NCBI GenBank assembly: GCA_964473325.1 | Contig: CAYYOG010000001.1 | Span: 52,618 to 116,617 of the forward strand | Origin: an uncultured Thermotogae bacterium | Lineage (GTDB): Bacteria > Bipolaricaulota > Bipolaricaulia > RBG-16-55-9 > DRXL01 | Length of the DNA: 64,000 nucleotides | Direction: 5' to 3' | In this document: piece by piece, positions 9,203 to 62,566 of the stretch | Numbering within the stretch: position 1 is the first letter of the stretch | Layout: every line of letters begins with the position of its first letter | Notes under the pieces: generated by a model | Told to the model about the DNA's origin: nothing | Database searches by the model: none | What the model saw: the letters and a program-made list of their open reading frames with translations, nothing else | Program-made: the position numbers and the translations under genes

Positions 9203-9220
9203 TTCTGTGCCTGCCGTGAT

Positions 9221-11442: not shown

Positions 11443-11480
11443 AGTTTAGCTTACCCAAAGTCGGCGCGCTCTGTCAAAGT

Positions 11481-29700: not shown

Positions 29701-30058
29701 GCCCACGCTCTTCACATTGAGAGAACTCTTCAGTATCTATCCAGCAGTCGCTCTCGGCACCCAACACATAGCCCCCGCGTCGTGTAAGAATATACTGGGA
29801 CTGCTCCCCACGCTCAAGCTGGGGCTCTAAGATCTTTCTCAGCTCTGCGACACGATTGCGCAGGTTCGATGCAGCGCTGCGGAGATTACTCTCTTCGGGC
29901 CATAAGTACTCAATCAGCTCATCAGCAGAGAAGACCCGGCCGCGCTCGCTCGCGAGAATTTTGAATAGTGCTTGGGTCTTAGCATTCTTCCAGAGCTGGG
30001 GCCCAAGCAGCTCCTCGTCGCGATAGACAGCAAATCTCCCAAAGCAGAAGATTTTTAC
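26717..30058 (-). CDS. SARP/AfsR-like regulator: winged-helix DNA-binding domain + BTAD + AAA ATPase + TPR repeats (5' end uncertain)
   Basis: The reading frame is open upstream of the tracked GTG start at 29767. It encodes an OmpR-type winged helix (VKIFCFGRFAVYRDEELLGPQLW ... LIEYLWPEE ... YILTRRGGYVL), then BTAD, a Walker A motif (LILGEAGMGKTRLGEEF) and many TPRs. No canonical start codon sits at the winged-helix N-terminus, and the repeat at 30068-30137 abuts it. Confidence 0.6.
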   Translation of the reverse strand, partial: VKIFCFGRFAVYRDEELLGPQLWKNAKTQALFKILASERGRVFSADELIEYLWPEESNLRSAASNLRNRVAELRKILEPQLERGEQSQYILTRRGGYVLGAESDCWIDTEEFSQCEERGRRAYREGKFDEASAAFESAVALYRGEYLTEDRYEEWALPVRERFRERFVEVLSLLADSLARRGQYRAALSYLERAVVESPLDEKLYRQMMVYASCAGERAVAHRAYERCRTALDRELGERPSSQTEEIFRQIQSERVCDWERFYPKGVPEGIALPMKIQRPPFVGRTREWEQLSSALSKARSGAGHLVLILGEAGMGKTRLGEEFLRWAHEHAGAQALYGRCYELQNPMPLHLWVEVLRQGVSQLTRADLAEVPPAWVAELSELLPELTPLIPDLPQMALPREHRQYRLFETLWRILKALALRHLPLLLFVDDLQWADSNSLDFLCYLMERFTNEPLLIVGAARSEELSTQLERVRHQGVRMGRLSEIVLQRLSEHEIHDLVKGLADELETTADFGGRLHRESAGNPLFATAVLQALFENGACVREGTRWRVTDPSRVVLAPSAVQLLERRAKRVSAAAQRVLQVIACAVQIELGVLEAVWEGTPEELFVHLAELTAQGLLVEREGRYEFMHDKFREVVYKSLEGPRRTWLHRRLAHAIERVYADPAAVGLAGQLAQHYEQGGQLRRSLEWVLKAISECGKHYHIEEGLQYVARGLLLLQRLKGQLNERERTEQEFSLILERLDFQLRSGQAEAAQESCERLLLLAEKLDLNKKAQALHWKGQWLVRTARYEEALRYAQRALELDPPDLLVRANLFSQIGLISFYRGEYQEALHYYRQALEIFRPRDPLKAAYTWNDCANALMKLGDYQQALTHYEMALRLYQELQDLQKAGAVLNNIGATLRYLGRYERAREYLEQACALDKTHGDRHGLGYSLCNLAQTYRLLGLPAKALELSMEAYKIFFELEDPFGQCMMQRWIGVVYRDLGQHEHALRHVHKALEQARSIHAHAEEGACLVELAHTLLDMGQDTHAALEVIQHALALIKQHGWGGELTIRAHYLRYRALAALHDPNAFEALRQAYEELQKIAHQITDPSLRQSFLAIPLHRQILSEAYS

Positions 30059-37959: not shown

Positions 37960-40401
37960 TCAAACTGTCACCGCCGCCGCGCCGACGCCGACTTCGATCA
38001 GGAACTTTCCGTCACGGGTGTCCACACGCACCGTGTCCCCTTCTTTCAGCTTGTTCTCGACGATCTGCATCGCGAGTTCGTTCTCGATCTCTTCTTGGAT
38101 AACTCTTTGCAAGGGGCGTGCTCCGTACAACGGGTCATAGCCCTTCTCGGCCAAGAGCGCCTTAGCGCTCTCTGTCACTTCAAGAGCGATCTCGCGCTCG
38201 GCGAGCTTCTGGCGCAACGCCTCCAACTTCAGCGCGACTATGTCTAAGAGATTCTCTTTTGACAGCGGCCGGAAGACGATGATTCCGTCGAGTCTATTCA
38301 AGAATTCAGGCCGGAAGAACTTCTTCACTTCGCCCAGGACGCGCTCTCGGATCTCTTGGTAGGAGCGCTCGTGAGCGTCGCTCTTCTCGCTGACGAAGCC
38401 CAACTGCGTCGTCTTGGAGACGATCTGCTCGCTGCCTAGGTTGCTCGTCATCAGAATAATCGTGTTCTTAAAATCTACAGTGCGTCCGTGGCCATCGGTG
38501 AGTCGCCCGTCGTCCAAGACTTGTAAGAGAATATTGAAGACGTCGCGATGGGCCTTTTCGATCTCGTCGAAGAGGATGACTCTGTAGGGCTTTCTGCGCA
38601 CGGCTTCGGTGAGCTGTCCGCCCTCTTCGTAGCCGACGTAGCCCGGAGGAGAGCCGATGAGTTTCGCGACCGAATGGGGCTCCATGAACTCGGACATATC
38701 GAATCTCAAGAGCGCGTTCTCATCGCCGAAGAGCGCTTCAGCGAGCGCTTTGGAGAGCTCGGTCTTGCCGACTCCCGTCGGGCCTAAGAACAAGAAGCTC
38801 CCGGCGGGGCGCTTGGGGTCTTTCAGGCCGGCACGGGCGCGCCGAACTGCTTGGGCAACAGCTTTGACAGCGTCATTTTGATCAATCACTCTCTGGTGCA
38901 GACGCTCTTCGAGTTTCGCTAATCTCTCGCGCTCTTCCTCGAACATCTGTTCGACGGGCACGCCCGTCCACAGAGCTACGGTCTCGGCGATCTCGCGCTC
39001 AGTCACGATGGGCTCTCGTTGAACTCTTTGCGCGTGCTCGGCCTCACACTTGATCTTTTCGGCTTGAAGTTTCTCCAACTCTTTCTCAATCTGTTTAGCC
39101 GCCTTAGGGTCAGCGTTCTTCAAGCGCCCTTCTAAGAGCTTTATTTTCTCTGTGATCTCTTGGACCTCAGGCGCGAACGTCCGGTCGACTCTGAGCTTGG
39201 ACGCTGCCTCGTCTAATAAGTCTATGGCTTTATCGGGCAAGAATCTGTCAGAGATATAGCGCGCCGAGAGCTGGGCCGCCGCGCGCAGAGCACTATCTGT
39301 AATTTTGACGCTGTGATGGGCCTCGAGCTTGGGACGCAGCCCCTCTAGGATTGCAATCGTCTCGTCGACTGAGGGCTCCTCGATCAAGACTTTCTGAAAG
39401 CGTCGTTCGAGCGCCGGGTCTTGCTCGATGTGCTCTCGGTACTCATCTAGAGTTGTCGCGCCGATCACTTGGAACGTCCCGCGAGCCAGGACGGGCTTTA
39501 AAATATTAGAAGCGTCGATGGCACCCTCGGCGGCCCCCGCGCCGACAACCGTATGCAGCTCGTCTATGAAGACGATAATCTTGCCCTTGGCGCTCTCGAT
39601 CTCATTAATAACAGCTTTGAGGCGCTCCTCGAACTCCCCTCTAAATTTGGTGCCTGCCACGAGCGCGGCCAAGTCTAACTGTATCAATTCTTTATTCTTG
39701 AGGGTATCGGGGACGGCGCCGGCGACAATTCGTTGAGCTAAGCCCTCAGCGATGGCCGTCTTGCCCACGCCGGGTTCCCCGATGAAAACGGGGTTGTTCT
39801 TCTTGCGACGCGAGAGAATCTGCACGGCACGGCGAATCTCTCTCGAGCGCCCGATGACCGGATCGAGTCTTCCCTCGCGGGCCAACGCCGTCAGATTTAT
39901 AGAGAATCGCTCTAATGCTTTGTAGCGGCTCTCGGCTTCCCTATCCGTCACGCGCTGCGCGCCGCGCACCCGCGACAAAGCGTGGTAAACCCGCTCCGGG
40001 GTTATATCATATTTATATAAGACCCTTCTGAGGGCCGTATTGGGGTCTTGACTGATTGCTATTAAGAGATGCTCGATCCCAATGAACTCGTCCTTGAGAC
40101 GGTCAGCTTCGACCTGGGCGGACTTCACTAACATCTCCAATCGAGGGGTTATGTAGATCTGCTGGCCGACGGTCATGGAGACGGTCGGCTTCTCCGTTAA
40201 GAGAATCTCCAAATCTTTGAGCAAGCCGGGGATGGGCACGCCCATCTCTTTGAGAAGTTCTTGGCCAACGCCCTCCTTCGCAGCTAGCGTATAGAAGATA
40301 TGCTCGACATCGAGCTGGTTGTGCTTATATTTCTCTAATAGATCTGTCGAATCCCGAAAGACCTCTTGCGCTTTCTCAGTGAAGCGATCAAATCTGATCA
40401 T
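37960..40401 (-). CDS. clpC: Clp/Hsp100 AAA+ chaperone, ClpC-type (ATP-binding subunit)
   Basis: Clp_N repeats, two Walker A motifs ([18 protein letters not shown] and [15 protein letters not shown]) about 335 aa apart, and a short middle domain. 813 aa fits ClpC rather than ClpB. Confidence 0.65.
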
Positions 40402-40423: not shown

Positions 40424-40450
40424 TTAGCAGACTCATCTCTGCTCTGCTAA
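40424..40450 (-). promoter_or_regulatory. CIRCE-like 9-N9-9 inverted repeat in the clpC leader
   Basis: TTAGCAGAC-TCATCTCTG-CTCTGCTAA. Compare the CIRCE consensus TTAGCACTC-N9-GAGTGCTAA. Lies between the promoter and the RBS. Confidence 0.4.
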
Positions 40451-40636: not shown

Positions 40637-40666
40637 TTGACAGCCTAAAATTGTGTAATCTATAAT
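40637..40666 (+). promoter_or_regulatory. perfect-consensus promoter TTGACA-N18-TATAAT for the SLH/Ompα-like gene
   Basis: TTGACA at 40637-40642 and TATAAT at 40661-40666. A GAGGAGG RBS follows. Confidence 0.55.
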
Positions 40667-40730
40667 ACGCTTCCGAGGCAGGCTGAAAAAAACCCGAGGA
40701 GGTTGAACCAAACGAACTCGGGAGGTAGAG

Positions 40731-41408
40731 ATGAGAAGTCTCAAGGTCGTCCTTATCGGATTGATGGTGCTCAGCGTGGGGCTCCTAGCGTTAGCAGATG
40801 GGCAGCCGAAACAGCCCTCCACCCCCAAGCCCGCAACGTCCAAGTCCACACCCCAACGCGGGTCGATCTTCGTCGACGTGCCAGCAGGTCACTATGCTGC
40901 GAGTGATCTGAAGTTCTTGGTCGAGCGCGGCATCATCACCGGGCTGCCCAACGGTGAATTTCAGGGCGGCAAGGCCCTCACCCGCTACGATGCCGCTGTG
41001 CTCATCGCACGGGCATTGCGCTATATGCAAAACGACCCGGAGAAGATCCAGCCGGCAGATCTGAAGATCTTACAAGACTTGATCTTCAAGCTCTCTGAGC
41101 GCGTCCAAGCGCTAGACAAAGTAGAGCAGGACGTCGCGGCACTCAAGAGCCGGCCCAGCACCGACACCAGCGCTGACGTCAGGGCTCTGAGAGAGAAGCT
41201 CAATCAAAGCGACGCGCAGATCGCGTCGTTGCAGACGCAAGTGCAGACGCTCAAAGCCGAGCTACAACAAGCACGGGCGGCTTCCTCTGGGGGCGTCGTT
41301 CCCGAAGAGGTCGAAAAGCTGCAACGGCAGATGAATAATGCGCTGCTCATTACGGGGTTTGCTGTTTTTGCCGGTGTCGTCGCAGTCATCGTGGCCCTCT
41401 TAACCTAA
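40731..41408 (+). CDS. SLH-domain / coiled-coil / C-terminal-TM envelope anchor protein (Ompα-like)
   Basis: Signal peptide. SLH motif (HYAASDLKFLVERGIITGLPNGEFQGGKALTRYDAAVLIARAL). ~90 residues of heptad-rich coiled coil. C-terminal hydrophobic helix LLITGFAVFAGVVAVIVALLT. Confidence 0.6.
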   Translation: MRSLKVVLIGLMVLSVGLLALADGQPKQPSTPKPATSKSTPQRGSIFVDVPAGHYAASDLKFLVERGIITGLPNGEFQGGKALTRYDAAVLIARALRYMQNDPEKIQPADLKILQDLIFKLSERVQALDKVEQDVAALKSRPSTDTSADVRALREKLNQSDAQIASLQTQVQTLKAELQQARAASSGGVVPEEVEKLQRQMNNALLITGFAVFAGVVAVIVALLT

Positions 41409-41419
41409 AGGGGGGGGTC

Positions 41420-41449
41420 TTGACAACAAGGGTGAGGGTATGCTATAAT
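41420..41449 (+). promoter_or_regulatory. perfect-consensus promoter TTGACA-N18-TATAAT for the three-paralog operon
   Basis: TTGACA at 41420-41425 and TATAAT at 41444-41449. The spacer GGGTGAGGG resembles a repeat arm. A ~130-nt leader follows. Confidence 0.55.
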
Positions 41450-41583
41450 ACAGCCGCTTAAAAAACGACCCTCATAAGGAGGTGATCGCCAGACTGGGGG
41501 AACACCGCCAAAAACACACCAACTGCAGAGTCGTGCGTTCGTGCGTACGCCACAAAACCGAGTAAAAAAGGAGGTTTCTGTAC

Positions 41584-43122
41584 ATGTTTAGAAGATTACT
41601 CGCTCTGACCTGTGCGCTCGCCTTTGTTGGAGCGCTGGCGTGGGGAGCGAACGCTGCTCCAATCAGCGGAAGCTTCGGCATCGACATCGTCTTCTATCCT
41701 CAGGGTCCTGTCATCAACAAGGTCGACCTCATCGACATGAAGTTTGAGGCCGATCTGATTCTCACTCTCTCAATCAGCGGCTTGGAAATCACCAGCACCA
41801 CGGTCTTCACCTTCCTTGGCGCTGAGTTCCAATCGTTCGTGATCAGCGCCACGCTGGGTGCTCTGACCATTAAAGACACGATCATCTTCTCCCCGACGTT
41901 CTTCGAGTTCGAGGAGACGCGTGATCAATATGGTCGCAAGCGCTGGTGCTTGCAACTCTCACTGCCGGCATTCCCAGCGACTCATACGTCAAGGTGCCAA
42001 TTCCCAGCTGTCATCAGCGGCTACATTGCTGATCCGGTCTTTGGGAATGTCGAGTTCTATTCGATCTTCCGCGGGCTCTTGCATCCGCTCGTCCAGAACT
42101 TAGTGCTGGCGCGCTGGCTCGATCCGACGAATGCGTTGAACAACATCATTCGGTTCCGCAAGAAGATCGCCGATCTGAGCCTCAACATCGCCGGGATGGT
42201 CCTCAACGTCAAGGCGCTCTTCGCTAACGTCAGCCCCAGCCCGACCGGCTACTTGCTGCGCAGCGGCTTGGTCCTGGCGATGGAGGGCAAGACCGTGAGC
42301 GGCGTGGGCGTGCGCGGCGAGCTGTGGCTGGGCGCCAAGCAGGGTCTGGAGTGCTTCGGCGAGTGCAAACCGATTGAGCGCTTCTTCAACCAGATGCTCA
42401 CCGGCGATGGGTTCAATAACGTAGAGGAAGAGAAGATCTTCCTGAACAACCTCGTGATCGCCGGGGTGCGCCATGACTTCTACGCCGAGTTCCACTTCGA
42501 TTTCACGCAGTGCCACATCGACCAGGTCGATGAGGACAACGACGGCTGGTTCTACCCCTATGACACAACGGGCGATGCGATGACCATCATCAGCCCGCTG
42601 TGCTTCATGTCGTTGACCCAGACGTACACCTTCACGCCGTGGAGGCTCAGCGTCCAGTCGATCTGGAACTGGAACGGCAACTTCGACCTGATCAGCAACA
42701 CCACAAGCACCCAGATGAAGGCCGGCGACATATCCGTGTTGGCGTACTTCGTCTGGCGCAACAACGGCCAGTGGTCCTTCGGTGGGCCAGCCCTGAGCGA
42801 GTTCATCATGACGTTCGATCCGCCTGGGCTGCAGGTGACGAGCGACATCACCTTCTGCACCGACCCGGTCTACTGCTTGGCTGCCTGGGGTGGTGGCCCC
42901 AACATACCGCCCGTGATTGCTCACTACCTGAGCATCAGCGGCACGGTCGGCCCGGTGAGCGTCGCCGCGTTGTTGATCTTCAATGGCGGCATTTTGGGCG
43001 AGTTCGCCGAGTTTGACGTGGAAATCGGTTTCGCGTTCGAGCCGGTCGCCGTGACCTTCTCTGCGATCCTGTTGGCCGATATGCTTGGTGGCATCGCTGT
43101 CAGCATGAACACCAAGTTCTAA
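41584..43122 (+). CDS. secreted putative outer-membrane beta-barrel protein, paralog 1 (Ompβ-like, uncharacterised family)
   Basis: AAAAAGGAGGTT RBS. Signal peptide MFRRLLALTCALAFVGALAWGANA. Alternating hydrophobic strands. Invariant LECFGECKP motif. Ends ...MNTKF (terminal Phe). Confidence 0.55.
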   Translation: MFRRLLALTCALAFVGALAWGANAAPISGSFGIDIVFYPQGPVINKVDLIDMKFEADLILTLSISGLEITSTTVFTFLGAEFQSFVISATLGALTIKDTIIFSPTFFEFEETRDQYGRKRWCLQLSLPAFPATHTSRCQFPAVISGYIADPVFGNVEFYSIFRGLLHPLVQNLVLARWLDPTNALNNIIRFRKKIADLSLNIAGMVLNVKALFANVSPSPTGYLLRSGLVLAMEGKTVSGVGVRGELWLGAKQGLECFGECKPIERFFNQMLTGDGFNNVEEEKIFLNNLVIAGVRHDFYAEFHFDFTQCHIDQVDEDNDGWFYPYDTTGDAMTIISPLCFMSLTQTYTFTPWRLSVQSIWNWNGNFDLISNTTSTQMKAGDISVLAYFVWRNNGQWSFGGPALSEFIMTFDPPGLQVTSDITFCTDPVYCLAAWGGGPNIPPVIAHYLSISGTVGPVSVAALLIFNGGILGEFAEFDVEIGFAFEPVAVTFSAILLADMLGGIAVSMNTKF

Positions 43123-43161
43123 CGGGCGAGCGTGTAAAACCAGAAAAAGGAGGTTCAGTCA

Positions 43162-44832
43162 ATGTTTAGAAGAATCACAGTTCTGGCCTGTGCAGTGGCG
43201 TTGCTGACTGGAGCCCTCTCTTGGACAGCAGCGGCGGCCCCGATCACGGGCAGTTTCAGCTTCGACATCGTCTTCTACCCGGAGCAGGCATGCACCGTTG
43301 ATCTTACTACTGGGGAAATCATCTGCGAAGATCCGATCAACAAGATTGACCGGATCCTGGTCAAGTTCGAGGCCGATCTGTTGCTGACGATGTCGATCAG
43401 CGGGCTCGAGATGACCAGCAGCACGTCGTTCACATTCAAGGGCATTGAGACCCAGCTCTTCTGGGTCAAGGCGACCGCGGGCGCGATGGTCTTCGAGACC
43501 GCGATGGTCTTCGCTCCCAACATCATGGAGTTCGAGGAAGTCCGCTCCGGCGCTGGCACCCGCTACTATTGTCTCAACCGCTCCGCGCCCGATAACTACG
43601 GCGTGTCATATCTGAATAGCTGCGCCTATGGCTCGAGCGCGGGCATCCTTGACCCGGTCTTCGGCTATTACACCTTTGGCGACATGCTCATCCTGGGTGG
43701 TGTGCATCCAGGGCTTGCGAACGTGATCGTTGGCCGCTGGGCCGACGGCCAGTTTGACGCTTGGCACACCCCCACGCCGAATGTGCCCGGCTCGATGCTC
43801 GATCAGCCGCTGACCTTCCGCAAGAAGGCCGCGGAAGTGACGCTCTCGATCGCCGGGTTGACGCTGGGCCTGCGCGGGCTGTTCGCCAACTTCGGCACGC
43901 CCGATGCGCCGAGCTTCACCGTTGGCACGGTGCTCGTCCTTGAGGGCACGACGGTCAGCGGCATCAAGGTGCGCAGCGAGACCTGGGTCGGCGCACGGCA
44001 GGGCTTCGAGTGCTTCGGCGAGTGCAAGCCCAACCAGCGCCTGGGCACTCAGGGCGGCTTCATCTTCGTGCCCTATCCGGCCACCGGCGGCATCGTCGTC
44101 CCTGGCTTCATGCCTGAAGAGGAGAAGCTCTATATCACCGGGCTGAAGCTGGCGGGCCTCACGCACGCCATCGTAGTGGAGATGCAGCTTGCCGGCGCTG
44201 GCGCCAGCTCGCTCCAGCCGACCTTCGTGGCGATCCAGACGTCCACGCCGCGCATCACCCCGCTGGGGATCACCGTGACGAACATCGTGCGGTTTACCGC
44301 AGGCTTGACGTTCGTGCGCGATCAGATCTGGTTCAGCGCCTCCTTCGGCGAGGCCGCGGGCTTCATCCGCTGGGACTTCCGCCCGGCCGCCCTCGGCGCG
44401 ATGGAGGCTCTGTTCAGGCAGTTCTATGCGGAGTTCGACGCGCCGGGCGCTAAGGCCTCGATCATGTTACTCACCTGCGATCCCAATGAGTACGGCGGCG
44501 TCCCTGGACGGTGCTACTGGGGCAACTACCTAGGCCTCGGTACGCCTAACCCGTTCCTCGATGTTTACTACGACCTGCTCTTCGAGGTCGGGGACCTGAC
44601 CGTGTACGTCTACGCGGAAATGATCGGGAGCCTGCTGAAGGACCTGTACGCCGCCGGGATTCAGGCCGAGTGGACGATCGGGCCGGTGACCATTGCCAGC
44701 CACACGGAGTTCCGCAACCTCCAGGCGGAGCGAAACTCGTGGAACCTTGGGTCTGGGTTCGGCGTTGATGCCTTCGACGGCACCAGGATCGAGCTGGCAA
44801 TCCAGCAGTTCACCGTTGAGATCAAGTTCTAA
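43162..44832 (+). CDS. secreted putative outer-membrane beta-barrel protein, paralog 2
   Basis: Same RBS and signal peptide (MFRRITVLACAVALL). FECFGECKP motif. Extra Cys-pair insertion (CTVDLTTGEIIC). Ends ...EIKF. Confidence 0.55.
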   Translation: MFRRITVLACAVALLTGALSWTAAAAPITGSFSFDIVFYPEQACTVDLTTGEIICEDPINKIDRILVKFEADLLLTMSISGLEMTSSTSFTFKGIETQLFWVKATAGAMVFETAMVFAPNIMEFEEVRSGAGTRYYCLNRSAPDNYGVSYLNSCAYGSSAGILDPVFGYYTFGDMLILGGVHPGLANVIVGRWADGQFDAWHTPTPNVPGSMLDQPLTFRKKAAEVTLSIAGLTLGLRGLFANFGTPDAPSFTVGTVLVLEGTTVSGIKVRSETWVGARQGFECFGECKPNQRLGTQGGFIFVPYPATGGIVVPGFMPEEEKLYITGLKLAGLTHAIVVEMQLAGAGASSLQPTFVAIQTSTPRITPLGITVTNIVRFTAGLTFVRDQIWFSASFGEAAGFIRWDFRPAALGAMEALFRQFYAEFDAPGAKASIMLLTCDPNEYGGVPGRCYWGNYLGLGTPNPFLDVYYDLLFEVGDLTVYVYAEMIGSLLKDLYAAGIQAEWTIGPVTIASHTEFRNLQAERNSWNLGSGFGVDAFDGTRIELAIQQFTVEIKF

Positions 44833-44874
44833 GGTGAGCACGTGAGAAAAACCGAGAAAAAGGAGGTTCTGTCA

Positions 44875-46332
44875 ATGTTTAGAAGACTCATGGTAATCCT
44901 GGCGGCCCTGGCTGTAACCGCAGCGGGCTGGAGCCTTCCCGCCCACGCCGCTCCGGTCAGTGGCTCCGCAACGTTAGATATCGTCTTCACCCCTGCGCTT
45001 TATTACGCGACGACCGGTACGAAGATCGACAAGATCCGCGTCAAGCTGGAGATGGACCTGATCCTGACCCTCTCCATCAGTGGCGTGGACATCACCAGCC
45101 AGTCGGTCTTCACCTTCCGCGGGCTGGAGTATCAATCGTTCGTCTTCACCGGGACGATCGGCGCTCTGGTGGTGCGCTCGCAGTTCATCTTCGCGCCCAA
45201 CATTCTTGAGATCCGCGCGGTGCGCGACGACCTTGGACTGCCAGCGTATTGTGTAGCGCTGGCCAATCCGACCATAGTGTCACCGACTCCGCCGGTTCTT
45301 CCTTTCAATTGGAATTGTGGCACGCCGGTGGACGCGGGCGAGCACACGCTCTACCTGTGGATCGAGGGCGCCGATCTGTACCTGACCACCGTCATGTACC
45401 TGCACCCGGCGCTGCGCAACTGGCTCCTGGCCACCTATATGGAGCTGCAGGCCACTGATCCACTCGGCCAGCCGCTGAGCTTCCGCAAGAAGACCGTGGA
45501 CTTGGCCCTGTCCTTGGCAGGGTTGACCATCGGCCTGCGCGGCATGTTCGGCAACGTTGGCTCGGTGACAACCCCCAGCTGGCGCATGGGCATTGTGGCC
45601 AGCGTCGAGGGCCAGACGGTCAGCGGCATCACCATCCGCGGCGAGAGCTGGCTCGGCGCGCGCCAGGGCTTGCAGTGCTTCGCCGAGTGTAAGCCCCTGG
45701 AGATCGTGCGCGGCGGCATGCTCCCCGATGCCCCGTTCACCTTCTACGAGGAGAAGCTCTTCATCCGCAACCTCAAGCTCGCCGGGGTCACATGGGATGC
45801 CCGCTTGGAGTTTGAGTTCGCCGAGGCCCCCGCAGGGCTGCGCTTCGTCGAGCTGACCCAGAGATTCCGGCTCGATCCGTTCCGGCTCGAGGTCACTAAC
45901 ACCCTCAATATCGTCGGGGCCAATCTCACGCTGGCTTCGGACGTCTTCGTGACGAGCTTGAAGGTCGGCGATATCGCGATGACCGTGGTCGGCTACATCT
46001 GGCCGGCGATCACCGGCGCGTTCAATCTGTATTGGAGCCGGGTGATCTCGGTCTTCGATCCGCCGGGCATGAAGGTCATCAGCGACATCCAGTTCTGCAA
46101 TGAGGAGCTCTACTGCACTAGCGCGCTCTTCTTCCATGACCTCGTGCTCATGGGGACCGTCGGCGACATGACGATCAACATCGGCATCCGCCTGTCGAGC
46201 ATCCTCACCGGCTTCGTTGGTGCGACCATCGAGATGAGCTGGAAGATGGGCAGCGCCCTGCTCAAGAGCGCCACGCTCCTGACCACCGACAGGCTCCAGG
46301 CCCAGATGTTCTCCATCACCTTCACGTTCTAG
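44875..46332 (+). CDS. secreted putative outer-membrane beta-barrel protein, paralog 3
   Basis: Start refined to MFRRLMVILAALAV, which sits after an RBS identical to the other two. LQCFAECKP motif. Ends ...ITFTF. Confidence 0.55.
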   Translation: MFRRLMVILAALAVTAAGWSLPAHAAPVSGSATLDIVFTPALYYATTGTKIDKIRVKLEMDLILTLSISGVDITSQSVFTFRGLEYQSFVFTGTIGALVVRSQFIFAPNILEIRAVRDDLGLPAYCVALANPTIVSPTPPVLPFNWNCGTPVDAGEHTLYLWIEGADLYLTTVMYLHPALRNWLLATYMELQATDPLGQPLSFRKKTVDLALSLAGLTIGLRGMFGNVGSVTTPSWRMGIVASVEGQTVSGITIRGESWLGARQGLQCFAECKPLEIVRGGMLPDAPFTFYEEKLFIRNLKLAGVTWDARLEFEFAEAPAGLRFVELTQRFRLDPFRLEVTNTLNIVGANLTLASDVFVTSLKVGDIAMTVVGYIWPAITGAFNLYWSRVISVFDPPGMKVISDIQFCNEELYCTSALFFHDLVLMGTVGDMTINIGIRLSSILTGFVGATIEMSWKMGSALLKSATLLTTDRLQAQMFSITFTF

Positions 46333-46351
46333 TGAAGGGTTCGGACGAGTT

Positions 46352-46396
46352 GGCCCGGCCCTGGGGGGATACCCCCGGGGCCGGTTCGTTTTTCTG
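46352..46396 (+). terminator. rho-independent terminator ending the three-paralog operon
   Basis: 13-bp GC stem (GGCCCGGCCCUGGGGG / CCCCCGGGGCCGG), 4-nt loop, then TTCGTTTTTCT. Confidence 0.7.
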
Positions 46397-46476
46397 AGTG
46401 CTTTGAATCACTGAGGGCAAACTTGACGGAGCACTCACACCAGAGTAGCATATATCTACATAAAGGAGGAATCACC

Positions 46477-47031
46477 ATGCGGCGCATACTGTTAGCCCTG
46501 CTGGTCGGTCTCGTCGTGGTCTTTCTCAGCGTCCAGGCCCAGACCATCTCAACTCATGAGATCGTCAAAGTGCTCTCGGCCCAAGGCGACGTGACGTCTT
46601 CGGATCTACAAGCGGCCCTCGGCCAATGGCAGCTCGAACTCTTCAATCTCCCTCATAAGACCGACTTCTTTCAAGCTCAGTATATCGTAGATGCCGACGA
46701 GAACGGGAAATTCGAGATCGGCGTTGACCCGGTCTACACGATCATGGGGTATCCGCGTCTGGCTACCGCCCGAACGACGGTCTTTTGTAACGTTCCGATG
46801 CCCTTCGTTGAGATCCGTATCCATGTCTTAGCTGATTTTGAAGTCGCACTCAACGGGCAAGCCCAGGGCATAAAGCAGTTTGGCACGATCCTCTTTCTGT
46901 CGACGGGAGACGTGCGCGGCCCATGGATCATGGTGCTCTCCGTCGACCTAGATAACGACGGGACTTCGGAGGGCGTGATGGGGATCTCGACACGATTCGC
47001 GGTGCCGATCATTCCCCCGCAGTGTCCATGA
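46477..47031 (+). CDS. small secreted hypothetical protein
   Basis: AAGGAGG RBS. Signal peptide MRRILLALLVGLVVVFLSVQAQT. ~184 aa with no recognisable family. Immediately downstream of the envelope operon. Confidence 0.45.
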   Translation: MRRILLALLVGLVVVFLSVQAQTISTHEIVKVLSAQGDVTSSDLQAALGQWQLELFNLPHKTDFFQAQYIVDADENGKFEIGVDPVYTIMGYPRLATARTTVFCNVPMPFVEIRIHVLADFEVALNGQAQGIKQFGTILFLSTGDVRGPWIMVLSVDLDNDGTSEGVMGISTRFAVPIIPPQCP

Positions 47032-47032
47032 T

Positions 47033-47644
47033 TCAAAACTTCGCGCTGCGACGGGTCTTGATCACCTCGTCGATCAAGCGATAGTTTTTGGCGTCCTCGG
47101 GGCTCATGAAGAAGTCCCTGTCAGTGTCACGCTCGATGCGTTCCAGGGGCTGACTTGTGTGTTCTGCTAGAATTCTATTGAGCTGATCGCGCATCTTGAG
47201 GATCTCTTCCGCGTGAATTTTAATATCAGCGGCCTGGCCCTGCACCCCGCCCCACGGCTGATGGATCATAATACGGGCATTGGGCAGGGAGAAGCGCTTG
47301 CCCTTCGTCCCCGCAGCTAAGAGCACCGCGCCCATAGAGAACGCCGATCCGACACAGATCGTGCGCACGTCGCTCCGCACATATTGCATCGTATCGTAGA
47401 TGGCCAACCCTGCTGTCGTGCTGCCCCCCGGTGTGTTGATATAGAGATTGATATCTTTCTCCGGGTCTTTCGACTCGAGAAAGAGCATCTGGGCCACGAC
47501 GAGATTGGCCACGTAATCATTGATAATCCCCTGCAAGAAGATGATGCGATCTTCTAACAAGCGCGAATAGATATCGTAGACGCGCTCATACTGGCCGGTG
47601 CGGTCGATCACGATGGGGATCGTAATCTGATCTTTTGAAGTCAT
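47033..47644 (-). CDS. clpP: ATP-dependent Clp protease proteolytic subunit
   Basis: Catalytic Ser and His motifs ([14 protein letters not shown] ... MIHQP). 203 aa. Confidence 0.9.
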
Positions 47645-47653
47645 ACTAGCTCA

Positions 47654-48844
47654 CTACTCCTTAGGGTGAATTTTCGCCTTTTCGTAGAGAAATTGCAAGA
47701 CGCGCTCGTCTTCAGCATCGGAACGAAAGCTCTGTAATTGTCCTTCGCGCTCGAGGAGCGCCCGGAATTTGATGGGCTTCATCTCGCGCTTCTGGGCTTC
47801 TTCGGCTAAGAGTTTGTCGAAGTCCGCATCGCTCAGAGCCAAGCCCTCACGACGCTTGATCGCGTCTAAGACGAGTTCACGCTTCACCCGCTGCTCGATA
47901 GCTTCTCGGAGTCTTTTGACGTCCTCCGCTGATGGCTCTGGAAGCCCTCGCTGCTGCCAGCGCTCCAGCTCTTGCGCTACTAAGCTCTCCATGAAGCGCG
48001 ACGGCAACTCTATGAGCGTCTGCGCGATAATCTTGTCTAAGACCTTGAGCTTGAGCGTGCGCTCCCGTCGCTGCGCCCGGCTCTCTTCTAATTCTTGACG
48101 GATCTTCGCGCGCAACGCTGCGATGTCCTCATGCCCCAAAGTTTTCGCAAGCTCTTCTACATCGGGCTTCTCTAAGATCTTGACGCCCTCGATGCGCACC
48201 CGAAGCTGCTGCCCATCGTCAGCCTTCAGAAGCACAGTCTCGCCTACACTGTGCCCGATGAGCTGCCCTGTCAGCTCCCCAGGGGAGGCCTGCCACTCCC
48301 GGACTTCTTCTTCTTCGCCAGGGATCTTTATCTCGACAATGTCTCCCGCTTCGACGACGGAACTCTTCTCGCCCACCTTGGGGAGGAGCGCCGCGTGATC
48401 GACACGGAGACGCTCTACAACCGCGTCTATATCCGAATCTTGAACGGGCTCGACGGGCACGTCTTCTATCTCAATGTCCGTATAGTTCTGTACGGTAACT
48501 TCAGGAAGGACCTCAACTTCGGCCTCAAACGCGAAATCTTTTTGTGGGTCGAACTCCCCAGGCTTGGTCTGGGGAGGACTGACAGGCCGTATCTGTAACT
48601 GTTGCAATGCTTGAGGGAGATACTCTTCGATCAGCTCTGTCTGAGCGTCTTCGTTTAAGAAATCTTTTCCGAAGCGAGCTTCCAGCACAGCGCGCGGAAC
48701 GCGCCCCGGACGAAACCCCGGCAAGTGAATCTCGCGACTGGCACGCCGGAAGAGCTCGTCTATCTTTTGACTCACTCTCTCAGCAGGGATCTCCACGCGC
48801 ACGACAATTTGCGTTGGGCTTTTCGCTTCTTTCGTGGCTTTCAC
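47654..48844 (-). CDS. tig: trigger factor
   Basis: N-terminal ribosome-binding domain (GFRPGRVPRAVLEARFG), PPIase and C-terminal arm. Classic tig-clpP order. Confidence 0.8.
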   Translation of the reverse strand: MKATKEAKSPTQIVVRVEIPAERVSQKIDELFRRASREIHLPGFRPGRVPRAVLEARFGKDFLNEDAQTELIEEYLPQALQQLQIRPVSPPQTKPGEFDPQKDFAFEAEVEVLPEVTVQNYTDIEIEDVPVEPVQDSDIDAVVERLRVDHAALLPKVGEKSSVVEAGDIVEIKIPGEEEEVREWQASPGELTGQLIGHSVGETVLLKADDGQQLRVRIEGVKILEKPDVEELAKTLGHEDIAALRAKIRQELEESRAQRRERTLKLKVLDKIIAQTLIELPSRFMESLVAQELERWQQRGLPEPSAEDVKRLREAIEQRVKRELVLDAIKRREGLALSDADFDKLLAEEAQKREMKPIKFRALLEREGQLQSFRSDAEDERVLQFLYEKAKIHPKE

Positions 48845-55311: not shown

Positions 55312-55778
55312 TGCCTGATTTCACTCCCAGTCCCTCTCCCGTGCAGGGGGAGGAATTTATCTCAACAAGCGCTGAGGAGACACGCCGTCTTGCAGCGCAG
55401 CTTGCGGCAGAGCTCAAGCCCGGTAATTGTGTCTTGCTCATCGGGGAACTTGGGGTCGGTAAGACGACCTTCGTGCAGGGGCTTGCTCAAGGGCTAGGGA
55501 TCACCGAGATAGTGCGCTCGCCAACGTTCATTCTCATGCGCGAATATCACGGGAGAATCCCGCTCTATCACTTCGACGCGTATAGAATCAAAAATTTAGA
55601 TGAGCTGCGCGAGATCGGCTTCGAAGACACCGTGCGCGCTGAAGGGATTACCGTTATCGAGTGGGGGGAGAAGACGGAAAAATTGCTGCCTCAGGGGTGC
55701 TGGCGCGTCTATATAGAGCTTCTGCCCGATCAGAGACGACGAATTTGCGTCGAGCGCCCTTACGCGCCCAGTACGTAA
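55311..55778 (+). CDS. tsaE: tRNA threonylcarbamoyladenosine biosynthesis ATPase TsaE
   Basis: Walker A motif GELGVGKTTFVQGL and SPTFILMREY. 155 aa. Confidence 0.8.
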   Translation: MPDFTPSPSPVQGEEFISTSAEETRRLAAQLAAELKPGNCVLLIGELGVGKTTFVQGLAQGLGITEIVRSPTFILMREYHGRIPLYHFDAYRIKNLDELREIGFEDTVRAEGITVIEWGEKTEKLLPQGCWRVYIELLPDQRRRICVERPYAPST

Positions 55779-57043
55779 AGCCCGCTGTTATTGTTCCCGA
55801 TAATAATCTCCAGATACCCGTCTCCGTCGAGGTCGGCGAGCGTCGGCGAGGAAAAGAACTGCGCGGCAGCTCTCGGACGATAACCCCACTTGCGGGCGCC
55901 GCTGCGCCCGTCAAGACAATAGAGATTGCCGTCGTGCGAGCCAATTACAACTTCGAGCTTGCCGTCGCCGTCAATATCGGCAATCGCTGGAGAAGACTCG
56001 ACGATATCGTGGGTGGGGAAGCTCCATTTCAATTTTCCGTCTAGGCCAGCGAGCGCGAGCACTCTCTGGTCGTTAATCCCGATGGCGACTTCGAGTTTGC
56101 CATCCCCGTCGAGATCGCCGATCGCGGGCGACGAAGGGATGCGCTCGCGACTCGCTTCAAAGAACCATCGCTGTTGACCCGTGCGCCCATCTATACAAAA
56201 TACGCCGCGCTTGCTGGAGCCAACGATGACTTCGAGTCTTCCGTTGCCGTCGAGGTCGCCAATCGCCGGCGACGACTCCACTGGGCCACCAGTATTAAAG
56301 CCCCATTTTGCTATACCTGTGCGCCCATCGAGCGCATAGAGCTTTCCATCCAAAGAGCCAATGACGACTTCGAGTTTGCTGTCGCCGTCTATATCTGCGA
56401 CAGCTGGTGAAGAGCGTGCGGGAAAATCGGGTAAGAATCTCCATTTCACTGATCCCATGCGCCCATCAAACGCATAGACGCGCTCCGAGCCCACGATTAC
56501 TTCGGATTTCCCGTCGCCGTCTACGTCAGCGATTGCTGGAGATGAGAGAATGCCATCTTCGGTGAGAAATGTCCATTTGGGTCGCCCAGTTCGCCCATCA
56601 AGCAGCGCAAAGCTCTTGTCCTGGGAGCCGATAGCAACTTCTAAGCGCCCGTCACCATCGGCGTCAGCAATTGCCGGGGAAGAATAGACCCAGCTTTTCG
56701 TCTTGTAGCGCCATTTGAGGACCCCGGTGCGCCCATGATACGCATAGAGATTACCGTCGTAGGATCCGACGACGATTTCTAAGACGCCGTCGCCGTCTAT
56801 ATCCCCCACAGCTGCAGAAGACTCAACGAGACCACGCGTGAAGGCACTCCAACGCTCCTTGGGAACCGTAATCTTGCTCGTTTTGACAGCCCGCCCCGTA
56901 TGGAAGAGATCGCGGCGGAACATGGGCCAATCGCTTGCGAGTGTCTGGGCCTGTGCAAGCGCGTTCCTTTCTCGTAGGAGCATCGGCGCTGTGAGCAGGG
57001 CAGCGCAGCTCGCTCTGATAAAATCACGGCGCGACAGCGTCAT
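55760..57043 (-). CDS. Tat-secreted FG-GAP/VCBS-repeat beta-propeller protein
   Basis: Twin-arginine signal MTLSRRDFIRASCAALL. Seven or more repeats of the DxDGDGxLEVxxGS type. Confidence 0.65.
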   Translation of the reverse strand: MTLSRRDFIRASCAALLTAPMLLRERNALAQAQTLASDWPMFRRDLFHTGRAVKTSKITVPKERWSAFTRGLVESSAAVGDIDGDGVLEIVVGSYDGNLYAYHGRTGVLKWRYKTKSWVYSSPAIADADGDGRLEVAIGSQDKSFALLDGRTGRPKWTFLTEDGILSSPAIADVDGDGKSEVIVGSERVYAFDGRMGSVKWRFLPDFPARSSPAVADIDGDSKLEVVIGSLDGKLYALDGRTGIAKWGFNTGGPVESSPAIGDLDGNGRLEVIVGSSKRGVFCIDGRTGQQRWFFEASRERIPSSPAIGDLDGDGKLEVAIGINDQRVLALAGLDGKLKWSFPTHDIVESSPAIADIDGDGKLEVVIGSHDGNLYCLDGRSGARKWGYRPRAAAQFFSSPTLADLDGDGYLEIIIGNNNSGLYVLGA

Positions 57044-57205
57044 ACAACCTCCTTGTGACACATTACTTTAGCACACTCAGCACACGCGGGCAAGGAATGG
57101 GGAAGAGTCTCGCTTCAGATTTGCGTTTTTGCGATTTTTGAGTAATATGAAACAAGGGCGAAGTGACGATATGCCAAATCTGATCAGAGAAAGGGACGAT
57201 TTGGG

Positions 57206-57709
57206 GTGATCTACAAGACGCGCAAACGCTACCGGGGAGAGCCGATCTGTACCGATCCCACGGCTGACCCTCGCGAGAACGAGACGGCGTTGCACTTTAC
57301 CTCAGGGGATCGGCGATTATGGATTTCGAGCTATGAGCCGACGGTCATTGCGGGGCTTTTAGCACATCCTGACTTTCAGATTGAGCATTTAATCTTTATG
57401 CGGGCCAACGGACGGGAGAGCGTCGTTGGGGTAATCGGGAAGCTCCCTGTGGGGGCGCTCTCGATTGGGCGAGCGCGTCAGTCGGATAGCCATGAATTAA
57501 TCATAAAAACCCACTGGAGGGCAGCCGACTCGCAGCTTTCAGGGTCCCAGCAGTTTAAGCTGAAGTTGGCTAGGAGAACTAGACCGCGTGAGATTAAGCG
57601 TTTCCCTAGGGATCGTAAATCAAGAGCTTCAACCAAGAAGGGTCGCGTGCGCTCTAAACGTCAGGCAAGCGCACGCCGTCCGCGCAAGCGTGGTCAGCGA
57701 AAGCGTTGA
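57206..57709 (+). CDS. hypothetical protein with a highly basic C-terminal tail
   Basis: GTG start after an AAAGGGA RBS. The C-terminal ~45 aa are rich in Arg/Lys (RKSRASTKKGRVRSKRQASARRPRKRGQRKR). Confidence 0.3.
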   Translation: MIYKTRKRYRGEPICTDPTADPRENETALHFTSGDRRLWISSYEPTVIAGLLAHPDFQIEHLIFMRANGRESVVGVIGKLPVGALSIGRARQSDSHELIIKTHWRAADSQLSGSQQFKLKLARRTRPREIKRFPRDRKSRASTKKGRVRSKRQASARRPRKRGQRKR

Positions 57710-57789
57710 ATGTGATATGCATTATCGTTCTAGGGAATCACAGCTGGTATAATACTTCTTGAGCGATCTGGCTTCACAAAGGAGGTCTT

Positions 57790-59406
57790 ATGGCAACCAA
57801 AGGTCGGAAGATCGGGGTACTAATCGGGTGTGCTCTGCTTGCTCTTTTGATAGCTTCAAGCAAGGGGGGTACTCAAGATTTTTGTACTCTAACCGTGAAC
57901 AGGACCGGGAGCGGGACAGTTACAAGCACTCCTCCAGGGATCAATTGTGGCACAGATTGTACGGGAATATACTTCTGTGGAATTACTGTGCAGCTAACGG
58001 CTACGGCCGCATCGGGTTGGACCTTGAGTGGTTGGAGTGGCTGCGACTCAGCCTCAGGTAATCAGTGTACAGTGATAATGAATATCAACCGCACTGTTAC
58101 GGTAACATTCTCAGCGGCGACATTCACGCTCACTGTGACGAAATCCGGCGCTGGAAGCGGCACAGTAACAAGTAGCCCCGCGGGGATCAACTGTGGCGCG
58201 GATTGCTCAGAGAGCTACTCTTCAGGCACAACAGTAAGGCTAACAGCCACAGCAGCTTCGGGCTCGATCTTCACTGGTTGGAGTGGGGCCTGCAGTGGTA
58301 CGGCGGCCACGTGCGATGTTCTTATGAACGCTGACAAATCAGTCACCGCAACCTTCGCGCAAGCCTTCACTCTCACTGTGACCAAAACTGGTACTGGAAG
58401 CGGTACTGTAACCAGCAATGACGGTAAGATCAACTGCGGCACCACATGCACCGCGAGCTATGCTGTCACTACTCCTCCTGCTACGGTAACCTTGACAGCT
58501 ACTGCGGACTCTGGATCAACTTTCAGAGGCTGGAGCGGGGCTTGCAGTGGTAGGGGTACTTGTTCAATTACTATGGATGCCAACAGATCCGTCACGGCTA
58601 CTTTTGCACTTAGGGGCGGTGGGACTGTCCCTGGCGCTGGTTGTCAAAATGATAACGTTGAAGGAGCTTCTCAGGACGATATTATTCAGATGTGTGATAC
58701 AGCGAGCGATAACTTAACTATTCGTGGGGATGGCAATGGAGTTTTCGACGACGGACCAGATCGATGTTCGTCATCACGATGTGGCGATGACCTGATCATA
58801 GGGAGTGGTGACGATGACCAAATTTATGGGGATGACAGTTTTGGCGGCTGGCGCACTAGCGGTCGAGATGTCATCTACGGGAGAATGGGCAACGACACTA
58901 TCTATGGCGAGTCAGGCAACGACACCATCTATGGCGGCAATGATGATGATGTGATTGACGGAGGCAATGGTAATGACCATCTCGAAGGTGAGGAGGGGAA
59001 TGATCTATTGCAAGGCGGTCCTGGCCGAGATGTTCTCCTTGGTGGATTAGGCGATGATGAGCTATATGGTGGTTCCGGCAACGATATACTGCGCGGCAAC
59101 GATGGCATCGACACCCTCGACGGCGGCACCGGCAACGATATCATTGAGGGCGGCTTGGACTCAGATTTTCTCGTTGGCGGTGGCGGGAATGATGTCTTCA
59201 TTGTGCGATCAGGCGATGCCGGGGATGACATCGAGACAATCATTTGCACCCAAGCGCACAACGAGAAGGGAAGAGTTATCTTCATCGGTGAATTCCCTGA
59301 CTTGCTACTTGGGCGTTTCCGCAACACTATCCTAACTATCCAAGATACTTCGGGAAGCTTTGAAATCATCACCGGTCCAGGGATCTGCGTCATCAGTCGA
59401 AGGTAA
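57790..59406 (+). CDS. secreted protein with four InlB-B-repeat-like domains and a C-terminal RTX-type calcium-binding repeat block
   Basis: Signal peptide. Four ~85-aa repeats (TVxxxGSGTVTSxPxGINCGxDC ... TATAASGxxFTGWSGAC ... VTATF). Then GGxGxDxxx nonapeptides (GESGNDTIYGGNDDDVIDGGNGNDHLEG ...). Confidence 0.65.
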   Translation: MATKGRKIGVLIGCALLALLIASSKGGTQDFCTLTVNRTGSGTVTSTPPGINCGTDCTGIYFCGITVQLTATAASGWTLSGWSGCDSASGNQCTVIMNINRTVTVTFSAATFTLTVTKSGAGSGTVTSSPAGINCGADCSESYSSGTTVRLTATAASGSIFTGWSGACSGTAATCDVLMNADKSVTATFAQAFTLTVTKTGTGSGTVTSNDGKINCGTTCTASYAVTTPPATVTLTATADSGSTFRGWSGACSGRGTCSITMDANRSVTATFALRGGGTVPGAGCQNDNVEGASQDDIIQMCDTASDNLTIRGDGNGVFDDGPDRCSSSRCGDDLIIGSGDDDQIYGDDSFGGWRTSGRDVIYGRMGNDTIYGESGNDTIYGGNDDDVIDGGNGNDHLEGEEGNDLLQGGPGRDVLLGGLGDDELYGGSGNDILRGNDGIDTLDGGTGNDIIEGGLDSDFLVGGGGNDVFIVRSGDAGDDIETIICTQAHNEKGRVIFIGEFPDLLLGRFRNTILTIQDTSGSFEIITGPGICVISRR

Positions 59407-59554
59407 ATTGAAACTCACGCTTCACTGAACACTCTGAAGGGATGTGGTCATCGGTAAAAAGACTCATATACCAGAGGTTGAGGGAAGAGCAAGGTGCAGG
59501 AAGCACTAAAAGTTGTTCGGTGTGCTCCGTGACTCTGTCTCGCTTTCCGTGATT

Positions 59555-60373
59555 CTACGCTAATTCTTTCAAGGCTTGCTCTAACTGCTGGGGCGTGGGC
59601 GCGCCGTGATGCCAGTGATAGTCCCCTTCCATAAAGGAGACGCCCTTCCCAATAACAGTGCGAGCAACGATCATCGTTGGACGCCCTGTACCCTGATTGC
59701 GCAAGAATTGCTCAAACGCCGAGATGATCTGCTCGTAGTCGTGCCCGTCAATCTCTAGAGTATTCCACCCGAAGGTGCGCCATTTCTCAGCGATGGGCTC
59801 GATCCTCATAATGTCTTCAGTGCGCCCGTCAATCTGCGTGAAATTTCGGTCGAGCATCGCGCAAAGATTATCTAATCTGTAGTGCACGGCAGCAGTCGCT
59901 GCTTCCCACGTCTGACCTGCCTGACACTCCCCATCACTGATGAGACAGTAGATTTTATAGTCTTTTCTATCCAACTTGGCTGCGAGCGCCATGCCCACTG
60001 ATACAGACAGCCCTAAGCCTAGCGATCCCCCAGAATGCTCTACCCCCGGCGTCTTGAAGGCCAAGCTAGGATGGCCCTGCAGGATCGAGCCGAGCTTGCG
60101 TAAGTTTTTGAGCTCTTCTTTGGGGAAAAAGCCCTGGTCAGCCAAGATCGCATAAAGTATAGGGCAGACATGCCCGTTGCTGAGCACGAATCGGTCTCGG
60201 TCTGGCCAGCGTGGCTCCTGAGGCCGCACGTGCAGATATTTATAGTAGAGCACGGTGAGCAAATCAGCAGAACTCAGTGCCCCTCCAGGATGCCCAGACC
60301 CAGCTTGGGCCACCATTGCTACGACAGCGCGCCGAAGCTCTTTCGCTTTCTGCTGAAGCTGTGAGATCATCAT
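59555..60373 (-). CDS. transketolase N-terminal subunit (split transketolase)
   Basis: TPP-binding N-terminal half (GSGHPGGALSSADLLTVLYY ... GHVCPILY ... SLGLGLS). 272 aa. Confidence 0.8.
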   Translation of the reverse strand: MMISQLQQKAKELRRAVVAMVAQAGSGHPGGALSSADLLTVLYYKYLHVRPQEPRWPDRDRFVLSNGHVCPILYAILADQGFFPKEELKNLRKLGSILQGHPSLAFKTPGVEHSGGSLGLGLSVSVGMALAAKLDRKDYKIYCLISDGECQAGQTWEAATAAVHYRLDNLCAMLDRNFTQIDGRTEDIMRIEPIAEKWRTFGWNTLEIDGHDYEQIISAFEQFLRNQGTGRPTMIVARTVIGKGVSFMEGDYHWHHGAPTPQQLEQALKELA

Positions 60374-60382
60374 GGAACTATT

Positions 60383-62521: not shown

Positions 62522-62566
62522 AGCGTTCCTACGATAGCGAAAAATTTCGCTAGGTGCAACAGCCCT

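Follow-up and report, generated by a model that had tools for sequence, protein, structure and literature searches.

A probable Ompα/Ompβ-like tether and barrel locus of the toga in Candidatus Bipolaricaulota

Introduction

The Ompα protein of Thermotoga maritima carries an SLH domain and a coiled-coil spacer, and its C-terminal ~20 residues are hydrophobic and anchor the protein in the outer sheath, the toga (PMC3387000, PMC9388160). The gene following Ompα (TM0477) on the same strand (ompA1-ompB) encodes Ompβ (TM0476), a secreted barrel protein of 417 amino acids (aa) with 22 predicted strands and a Phe end (PMC3387000). Electron cryotomography has shown the toga of this organism as sheets of barrel trimers on Ompα fibres of ~50 nm (PMC10160955), and published searches found no Ompβ homologs outside the Thermotogae (PMC3387000, PMC10160955). 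A split Ompα/Ompβ-like system, an SLH protein with an adjacent barrel, was described by Witwinowski et al. for one genome each of Bipolaricaulota and Fraserbacteria (bioRxiv 10.1101/2021.05.31.446380). The first Bipolaricaulota isolate, J31 (2025), has a toga with a hexagonal protein surface lattice; the paper names no lattice proteins. Here we describe a locus of this kind in a stretch of 64,000 nucleotides (nt), referred to as the window (contig CAYYOG010000001.1, positions 52,618 to 116,617), from a member of Candidatus Bipolaricaulota (Acetothermia).

Five plus-strand genes, g1 to g5, fill positions 40637-47031 of the window. A sequence-only reading had interpreted the first four as an Ompα/Ompβ-like system, with an SLH, coiled-coil and helix protein (g1) followed by an operon of three paralogous secreted proteins of ~500 aa that end in Phe and for which it could name no family (g2 to g4). 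Our analysis supports this interpretation: the locus probably encodes the main link between cell wall and outer membrane (toga) together with its major barrels, built in two parts.

Results

Domain architecture of the candidate tether

The genes and expression signals of the tether and the barrel operon are:

40637..40666, plus strand: predicted g1 promoter, TTGACA-N18-TATAAT, 12 of 12 consensus positions
40731..41408, plus strand: g1, candidate Ompα-like tether of 225 aa, based on open reading frame (ORF), Pfam SLH match, heptads and C-terminal hydropathy
41420..41449, plus strand: predicted promoter of the barrel operon, TTGACA-N18-TATAAT, 12 of 12 consensus positions, with TG ahead of the -10 hexamer
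41584..43122, plus strand: g2, predicted barrel, paralog 1, 512 aa; AAAAGGAGGT at 41566-41575; signal peptide aa 1-24; ends in ...SMNTKF
43162..44832, plus strand: g3, predicted barrel, paralog 2, 556 aa; ribosome-binding site at 43145-43154; ends in ...VEIKF
44875..46332, plus strand: g4, predicted barrel, paralog 3, 485 aa; ribosome-binding site at 44858-44867; ends in ...ITFTF
46355..46394, plus strand: predicted intrinsic terminator closing the barrel operon, a 13-base-pair stem with 12 GC pairs, then TTCGTTTTTC (stem at 46355-46384 plus T-run)

The g1 product begins with a signal peptide (aa 1-22, MRSLKVVLIGLMVLSVGLLALA/DG, as read from the sequence) and a Pro/Thr-rich linker (aa 23-45). 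They are followed by one SLH domain (Pfam PF00395) at aa 47-89, nt 40869-40997, which was recognised with an E-value of 1.2e-6 and 28.8 bits against a cutoff of 20.8. The heptad coiled coil covers aa ~108-140 and ~147-184 (nt ~41052-41282) and is interrupted by the sequence RPSTDTS; regular a/d heptads were found at aa 111-135 and 150-181. A GGVVP break separates the coiled coil from a C-terminal hydrophobic helix at aa 204-225 (nt 41340-41405), which has no cytoplasmic tail: the highest-scoring Kyte-Doolittle windows of 19 residues begin at residues 204-207 and reach the last residue, 225. K and R precede this helix, and no positive charge comes after it. Pfam, heptad and hydropathy evidence thus agree with the domain order that the sequence-only reading had given for g1, and the ORFs also lie where it had placed them.

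We compared 13 orthologs of g1, which have 63-95% identity. Nearly all are 218-227 aa long, one listed ORF reaching 234 aa via an upstream start codon. The heptads are conserved and the helix motif FA..AGV.AVI.A..T is invariant in this set. The fixed length fits a role of g1 as a ruler.

The three paralogs belong to an unannotated protein family

All three downstream proteins start with MFRR..., carry a signal peptide ending in A-A-P and terminate in Phe with alternate hydrophobic positions. They are related over their full length, with 33% identity between g2 and g3 (E 4e-77) and 35% between g2 and g4 (E 6e-86). For g4 we use the ATG at 44875, located behind its own AAAAGGAGGT site, as the start codon, while the ORF finder lists a GTG at 44842. 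Neither Pfam nor NCBIfam gave a match for any of g2 to g5 (E up to 1), and a profile search of the PDB sequences with the barrel family returned 0 matches; none of these searches connected the paralogs to a known enzyme or S-layer family.

A profile search of 1.84 billion representative proteins recovered 147 clusters only, and the named homologs all belong to Candidatus Bipolaricaulota (Acetothermia). Terminal Phe is present in 56 of 59 members of the barrel family. Six Cys residues (C122, C138, C257, C261, C425 and C431 of g2) occur in at least 93% of the members, all on the loop side, and two of them lie within an invariant ECFGECKP motif. Their probable role is to form three local disulfides or to bind a metal. 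More distant relatives of 380-940 aa share the first strands and an A-(D/G)-V-(T/E)-G-S-F motif immediately behind the signal peptide; all but a few also end in Phe. A profile-profile comparison aligned this second group (A2 family) with the barrels along their full length and showed true relatedness (hhalign probability 100%, E 3e-52), and no Pfam family was found among the ten distant relatives checked. Members of this wider unannotated secreted family, with A-D-V-T-G-S-F N-termini and mostly Phe ends, were also seen at 544-1947 of locus L045 and at 8001-9272 of locus L046, and one metagenomic contig of 3.2 Mb carries at least eight paralogs.

The first paralog is predicted to be a 24-strand barrel

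We built an AlphaFold2 model of g2 from 84 homologs and counted strands of at least seven residues. The model has a mean predicted local distance difference test score (pLDDT) of 86 and a predicted TM-score (pTM) of 0.80. It shows a barrel of 24 transmembrane β-strands, in which the mature chain opens with strand 1 at residue 27. None of the 11 even connections exceeds 5 residues (range 2-5, 32 in sum), whereas the odd connections hold every long insert (62, 34, 30, 19, 10, 10 and 9 residues) and amount to 190 residues. The longest loop-side inserts are aa 128-189, 250-279 (with the invariant ECFGECKP) and 305-338. Short even turns and long odd loops are the asymmetry of outer membrane proteins, with both termini predicted to be periplasmic. 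The two faces of the strands alternate in hydropathy, with mean Kyte-Doolittle values of +1.83 and -0.50. In a Foldseek search with the model, only outer membrane barrels were returned as neighbours, namely LptD, the ushers FimD/PapC and porins, at a probability of 1.00. Hence, for the first paralog, structure prediction confidently returned the barrel that the sequence-only reading had expected. In their sequence features, the paralogs resemble generic barrels that are inserted by the β-barrel assembly machinery (BAM): a signal peptide is followed by amphipathic strands in even number, as predicted for g2, turns are short and loops long, and the chains end in an aromatic residue (NTKF, EIKF and TFTF).

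Expression signals of the locus

Perfect sigma-70 promoters (TTGACA-N16-18-TATAAT) are found three times in the 64 kb, compared to 0.02 expected by chance. Two of them precede g1 and g2. The barrel operon has a leader of ~134 nt, which gave no Rfam match and has the folding energy of shuffled sequence (z 0.04). The ribosome-binding site AAAAGGAGGT stands before g2, g3 and g4 at equal distance, and these are its sole three copies in the window. The sequence-only reading had assigned perfect promoters to both units and treated g2-g4 as an operon of their own; both assignments agree with the two promoter sites and with the strong terminator behind g4. It had also attributed the ribosome-binding site AAAAAGGAGGTT to the whole locus, which holds for the three barrel genes and not for g1, where GGGAGGT is found instead. 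Judged from these consensus signals only, the tether and barrel genes would be highly expressed.

The third perfect promoter (40479-40451, minus strand) drives the divergent gene for a Clp-type AAA+ chaperone. At 40424-40450, directly downstream of this promoter and in the same intergenic region as the g1 promoter, we noticed an inverted repeat, TTAGCAGAC-N9-CTCTGCTAA, which resembles the controlling inverted repeat of chaperone expression (CIRCE), the HrcA operator. Its position suggests that the Clp-type AAA+ gene is under heat-shock control.

Gene order is conserved across the phylum

Our scan of one genome per GTDB species recovered 40 loci from metagenome-assembled genomes (MAGs). Their labels are Bipolaricaulota, Acetothermia, Bipolaricaulia and in some cases Fraserbacteria, and one genome, at 79% identity, is labelled 'uncultured Thermotogae'. 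At least 12 species-level genomes, which bear the labels Bipolaricaulota, Acetothermia or Fraserbacteria, keep the order g1-g2-g3-g4-g5 and have a clear 1:1 ortholog of each gene; the SLH, coiled-coil and helix gene and the barrel-family genes thus occur together in relatives, in the same order. Identity of the orthologs to the window proteins ranges from 61 to 95% for g1, 52 to 86% for g2, 53 to 89% for g3 and 47 to 87% for g4. The flanks are shared wherever the contig is long enough, with IMPDH, (M14 peptidase), Uma2 and the Clp ATPase on one side and ClpP, Tig and ApbA on the other. In the window, the locus lies between the divergent Clp-type AAA+ chaperone gene (37960-40401, minus strand) and clpP-tig (47033-48844, minus strand). 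GC content per 2-kb bin of the window is 52-63% and mostly 55-58%, somewhat below the 60% stated by the sequence-only reading.

An independent tandem barrel triplet was found in a divergent Acetothermia MAG (JACOSB01), at 7929-12329 of locus L026. Its three members are 50-53% identical among themselves and 34-41% identical to g2-g4, and no SLH gene is located upstream. This MAG contains at least seven loci of the barrel family.

Neighbouring genes and side loci

The fifth gene of the locus is:

46477..47031, plus strand: g5, secreted protein of 184 aa, conserved; weak promoter-like site at 46423-46451; AAGGAGG ribosome-binding site

It falls within the stretch covered by the sequence-only reading, whose text does not mention it, and forms a separate unit behind the terminator of the barrel operon. 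Every complete related locus has g5 in the syntenic position; whether g5 is part of the tether-barrel system is uncertain.

Two related loci encode secreted PD40 (TolB-like) repeat proteins of 933-958 aa that end in GSGF or GSWF (L040, 10025-12898; L041, 7690-10488). Short barrel-family members of 433-491 aa lie ~1.6 kb upstream of them, and this arrangement may be a second envelope locus. Elsewhere in the window, a gene at 26717-29767 (minus strand) encodes a 1016-aa regulator with BTAD, AAA_16 and TPR domains (SARP/MalT-like), which is conserved at the corresponding position in at least one related genome (L001). Positions 55760-63958 contain a cluster of surface or secreted type, consisting of an FG-GAP/PQQ β-propeller protein, a protein with RTX repeats and InlB B-repeats, an S8 subtilase and a protein with PKD and FG-GAP domains.

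Discussion

The domain logic of g1 and the predicted barrel of the first paralog both speak for the Ompα/Ompβ-like interpretation that the sequence-only reading had put forward. According to the mechanism we propose, g1 would be exported and its signal peptide removed. The SLH domain would then bind the wall, presumably via a secondary cell-wall polymer that is pyruvylated and sits on peptidoglycan. As one binding unit requires three SLH copies and g1 has a single one, g1 most likely would trimerise into a parallel coiled coil with a length of about 10-14 nm. The C-terminal helix, which is invariant and lacks a tail, would sit in the outer layer, either in lipid or against the barrels. The three paralogs would be exported as well, inserted by the BAM pathway via their C-terminal Phe signal and fold as 24-strand barrels that make up much of the outer sheath and provide its diffusion pores. 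With a g1 stalk of only about 75-95 residues, wall and outer layer are predicted to lie about 10-14 nm apart and not 45-50 nm.

Across the phylum the three paralogs occur 1:1:1 and do not change their order. The three barrels could be an obligate heterotrimer, onto which the three C-terminal helices of a single g1 trimer would dock. We regard this as a tentative idea that is rather doubtful at present. If true, the hexagonal toga lattice seen by cryo-electron microscopy in the first Bipolaricaulota isolate would be built from this heterotrimer unit, and the unit would represent the first heteromeric split version of an OmpM-type tether. For a barrel of 24 strands, we estimate from standard barrel geometry that the backbone measures ~4.4 nm across and that the side chains raise this diameter to 5.5-6 nm, which is compatible with the reported spacing of 6.25 nm.

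Several observations weigh against a wall-to-toga link of this kind. No window ORF of 150 aa or more encodes BamA or CsaB (PS_pyruv_trans). No Omp85 protein was recognised in ~0.5 Mb of related loci, where a screen for long secreted ORFs with an aromatic end yielded only the PD40-repeat proteins of 933-958 aa, which are not Omp85. The phylum's only evidence for BamA is the Ran1 genome, which is reported to encode an outer membrane 'bacterial surface antigen' protein. Witwinowski et al. list CsaB in Bipolaricaulota genomes immediately beside the SLH-barrel pair (pair, MBC7098427/8; CsaB, MBC7098425; bioRxiv 10.1101/2021.05.31.446380), but there is no CsaB beside the present locus, nor within two genes upstream in relatives with inspectable flanks; their pair may belong to a different locus or a different lineage. 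The Foldseek TM-scores of the g2 model are low (0.28-0.43), and no specific barrel class was identified. In addition, the same genomes carry extra barrel paralogs elsewhere, as singletons or in tandem, with no SLH gene adjoining; the barrels are therefore not strictly dependent on an adjacent tether gene. These paralogs, the separate promoters of g1 and the barrels, and the fact that a cleavable signal peptide with one terminal hydrophobic helix is the default Sec stop-transfer anchor are also what one would expect if the g1 helix were anchored in the cytoplasmic membrane with the N-terminus outside. In that case g1 would link the cytoplasmic membrane to the wall polymer, and it would adjoin porins just because both are envelope genes. 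We consider this unlikely. The charge pattern around the helix, with K and R before it, no positive charge after it and no cytoplasmic tail, is the reverse of that of a stop-transfer anchor in the cytoplasmic membrane and argues weakly against such an anchoring. Moreover, T. maritima Ompα has the same architecture and is toga-associated (PMC3387000, PMC9388160), the invariance of the helix sequence suggests specific packing, and the adjacency of g1 and g2 is fixed phylum-wide.

The remaining alternatives concern the barrels. Instead of general porins or lattice units, g2-g4 could be barrels that serve transport or secretion specifically, in the manner of TonB-dependent importers, ushers or LptD. 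The best structural neighbours of g2 are indeed transporters and ushers of 22-26 strands, the inserts at aa 128-189, 250-279 and 305-338 could fold into the lumen as a gate, and three diverged, individually conserved paralogs suggest divided functions. But the similarity to the transporter and usher classes is low by TM-score, hidden Markov model searches gave no plug, TonB box, usher or LptD domain match in the barrels, and the mature g2 chain starts at once with strand 1. The expression signals and the linkage to a tether fit bulk structural proteins, and a role dedicated to transport is in our view improbable. A further alternative, in which g2-g4 are non-membrane S-layer subunits anchored by g1 and no barrel is embedded in lipid, can be derived from the J31 preprint, where the outermost toga surface is a hexagonal proteinaceous S-layer, and from the role of SLH domains as typical S-layer anchors. 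It is very hard to reconcile with the predicted closed barrel, its hydrophobic outer face, its short turns and the terminal Phe signal. The SLH domain is on g1 and not on the barrels, which match no S-layer family. As the 'lattice' of T. maritima is itself made of barrel trimers (PMC10160955), this alternative largely merges with the two-part tether and barrel explanation, and we maintain the latter.

The Bipolaricaulota and Thermotogota branch close to each other, and both have been used in debates on the origin and loss of the second membrane. For the toga of the Bipolaricaulota, the locus supplies concrete lattice candidates, one short SLH rod and three large barrels, whose expression signals are the strongest in the 64 kb. 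This makes the toga's composition directly testable by proteomics and subtomogram fitting. Specialists are unlikely to be surprised by such a locus; its value lies in the named candidates for the toga lattice.

Comparison with known systems

The sequence-only reading had suggested that this may be an undescribed system. This does not apply to its kind, which Witwinowski et al. had already reported for the phylum (bioRxiv 10.1101/2021.05.31.446380). In the literature searched, the barrel family, its ~24-strand fold, the six cysteines, the fixed triplet with its own promoter and the short stalk appear to be undescribed.

The locus shares with Ompα/Ompβ the order of tether and then barrel, the same strand and a Phe-ending barrel, a likeness judged by architecture and published descriptions. 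The sequence-level parts of a bipartite system were found: an SLH domain after the signal peptide, a coiled-coil stalk, a C-terminal helix and an adjacent gene for a predicted secreted barrel on the same strand. The differences are equally clear. The stalk of about 75-95 residues (~10-14 nm) compares to 316 residues (~45-50 nm) in T. maritima Ompα, and three conserved paralogous barrels with their own promoter stand in place of one Ompβ. These barrels have 24 predicted strands in 485-556 aa, compared to 22 strands in 417 aa, and are set apart from T. maritima Ompβ by six conserved loop cysteines including the invariant ECFGECKP. With the T. maritima pOMPs (Sexton et al. 2023, PMC10160955) the likeness is one of principle, as several abundant barrels and several Ompα-type rods build a mostly proteinaceous sheath there, and lineage-restricted, unannotated barrel families are common to both. 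However, barrel genes are scattered in Thermotoga and the ompα-ompβ operon is poorly conserved, whereas here the tether and the block of three barrels are fixed phylum-wide.

In the OmpM/SlpA superfamily (Veillonella parvula OmpM1, PDB 8BYM; Deinococcus radiodurans SlpA), the modules form one chain, while here they are split across polypeptides: g1 ends after its helix, and each barrel is encoded by a gene of its own and has its own signal peptide, so the locus does not belong to the single-chain type. SlpA barrels have 28-30 strands and a stalk of ~28 nm (PMC9388160), and the present barrels show no detectable sequence similarity to any PDB chain. The resemblance to FhuA and other TonB-dependent transporters, to FimD/PapC and to LptD is one of fold only, with 4-13% identity, TM-scores of at most 0.43 and no plug, TonB box, usher or LptD domain. 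Membership among the TonB-dependent transporters was rejected, as no plug, TonB box or TonB_dep_Rec match was obtained from Pfam and NCBIfam (E up to 1). In architecture the locus agrees with the bipartite Ompα/Ompβ design, and it provides a second, independent example of a split tether for comparison with Thermotoga.

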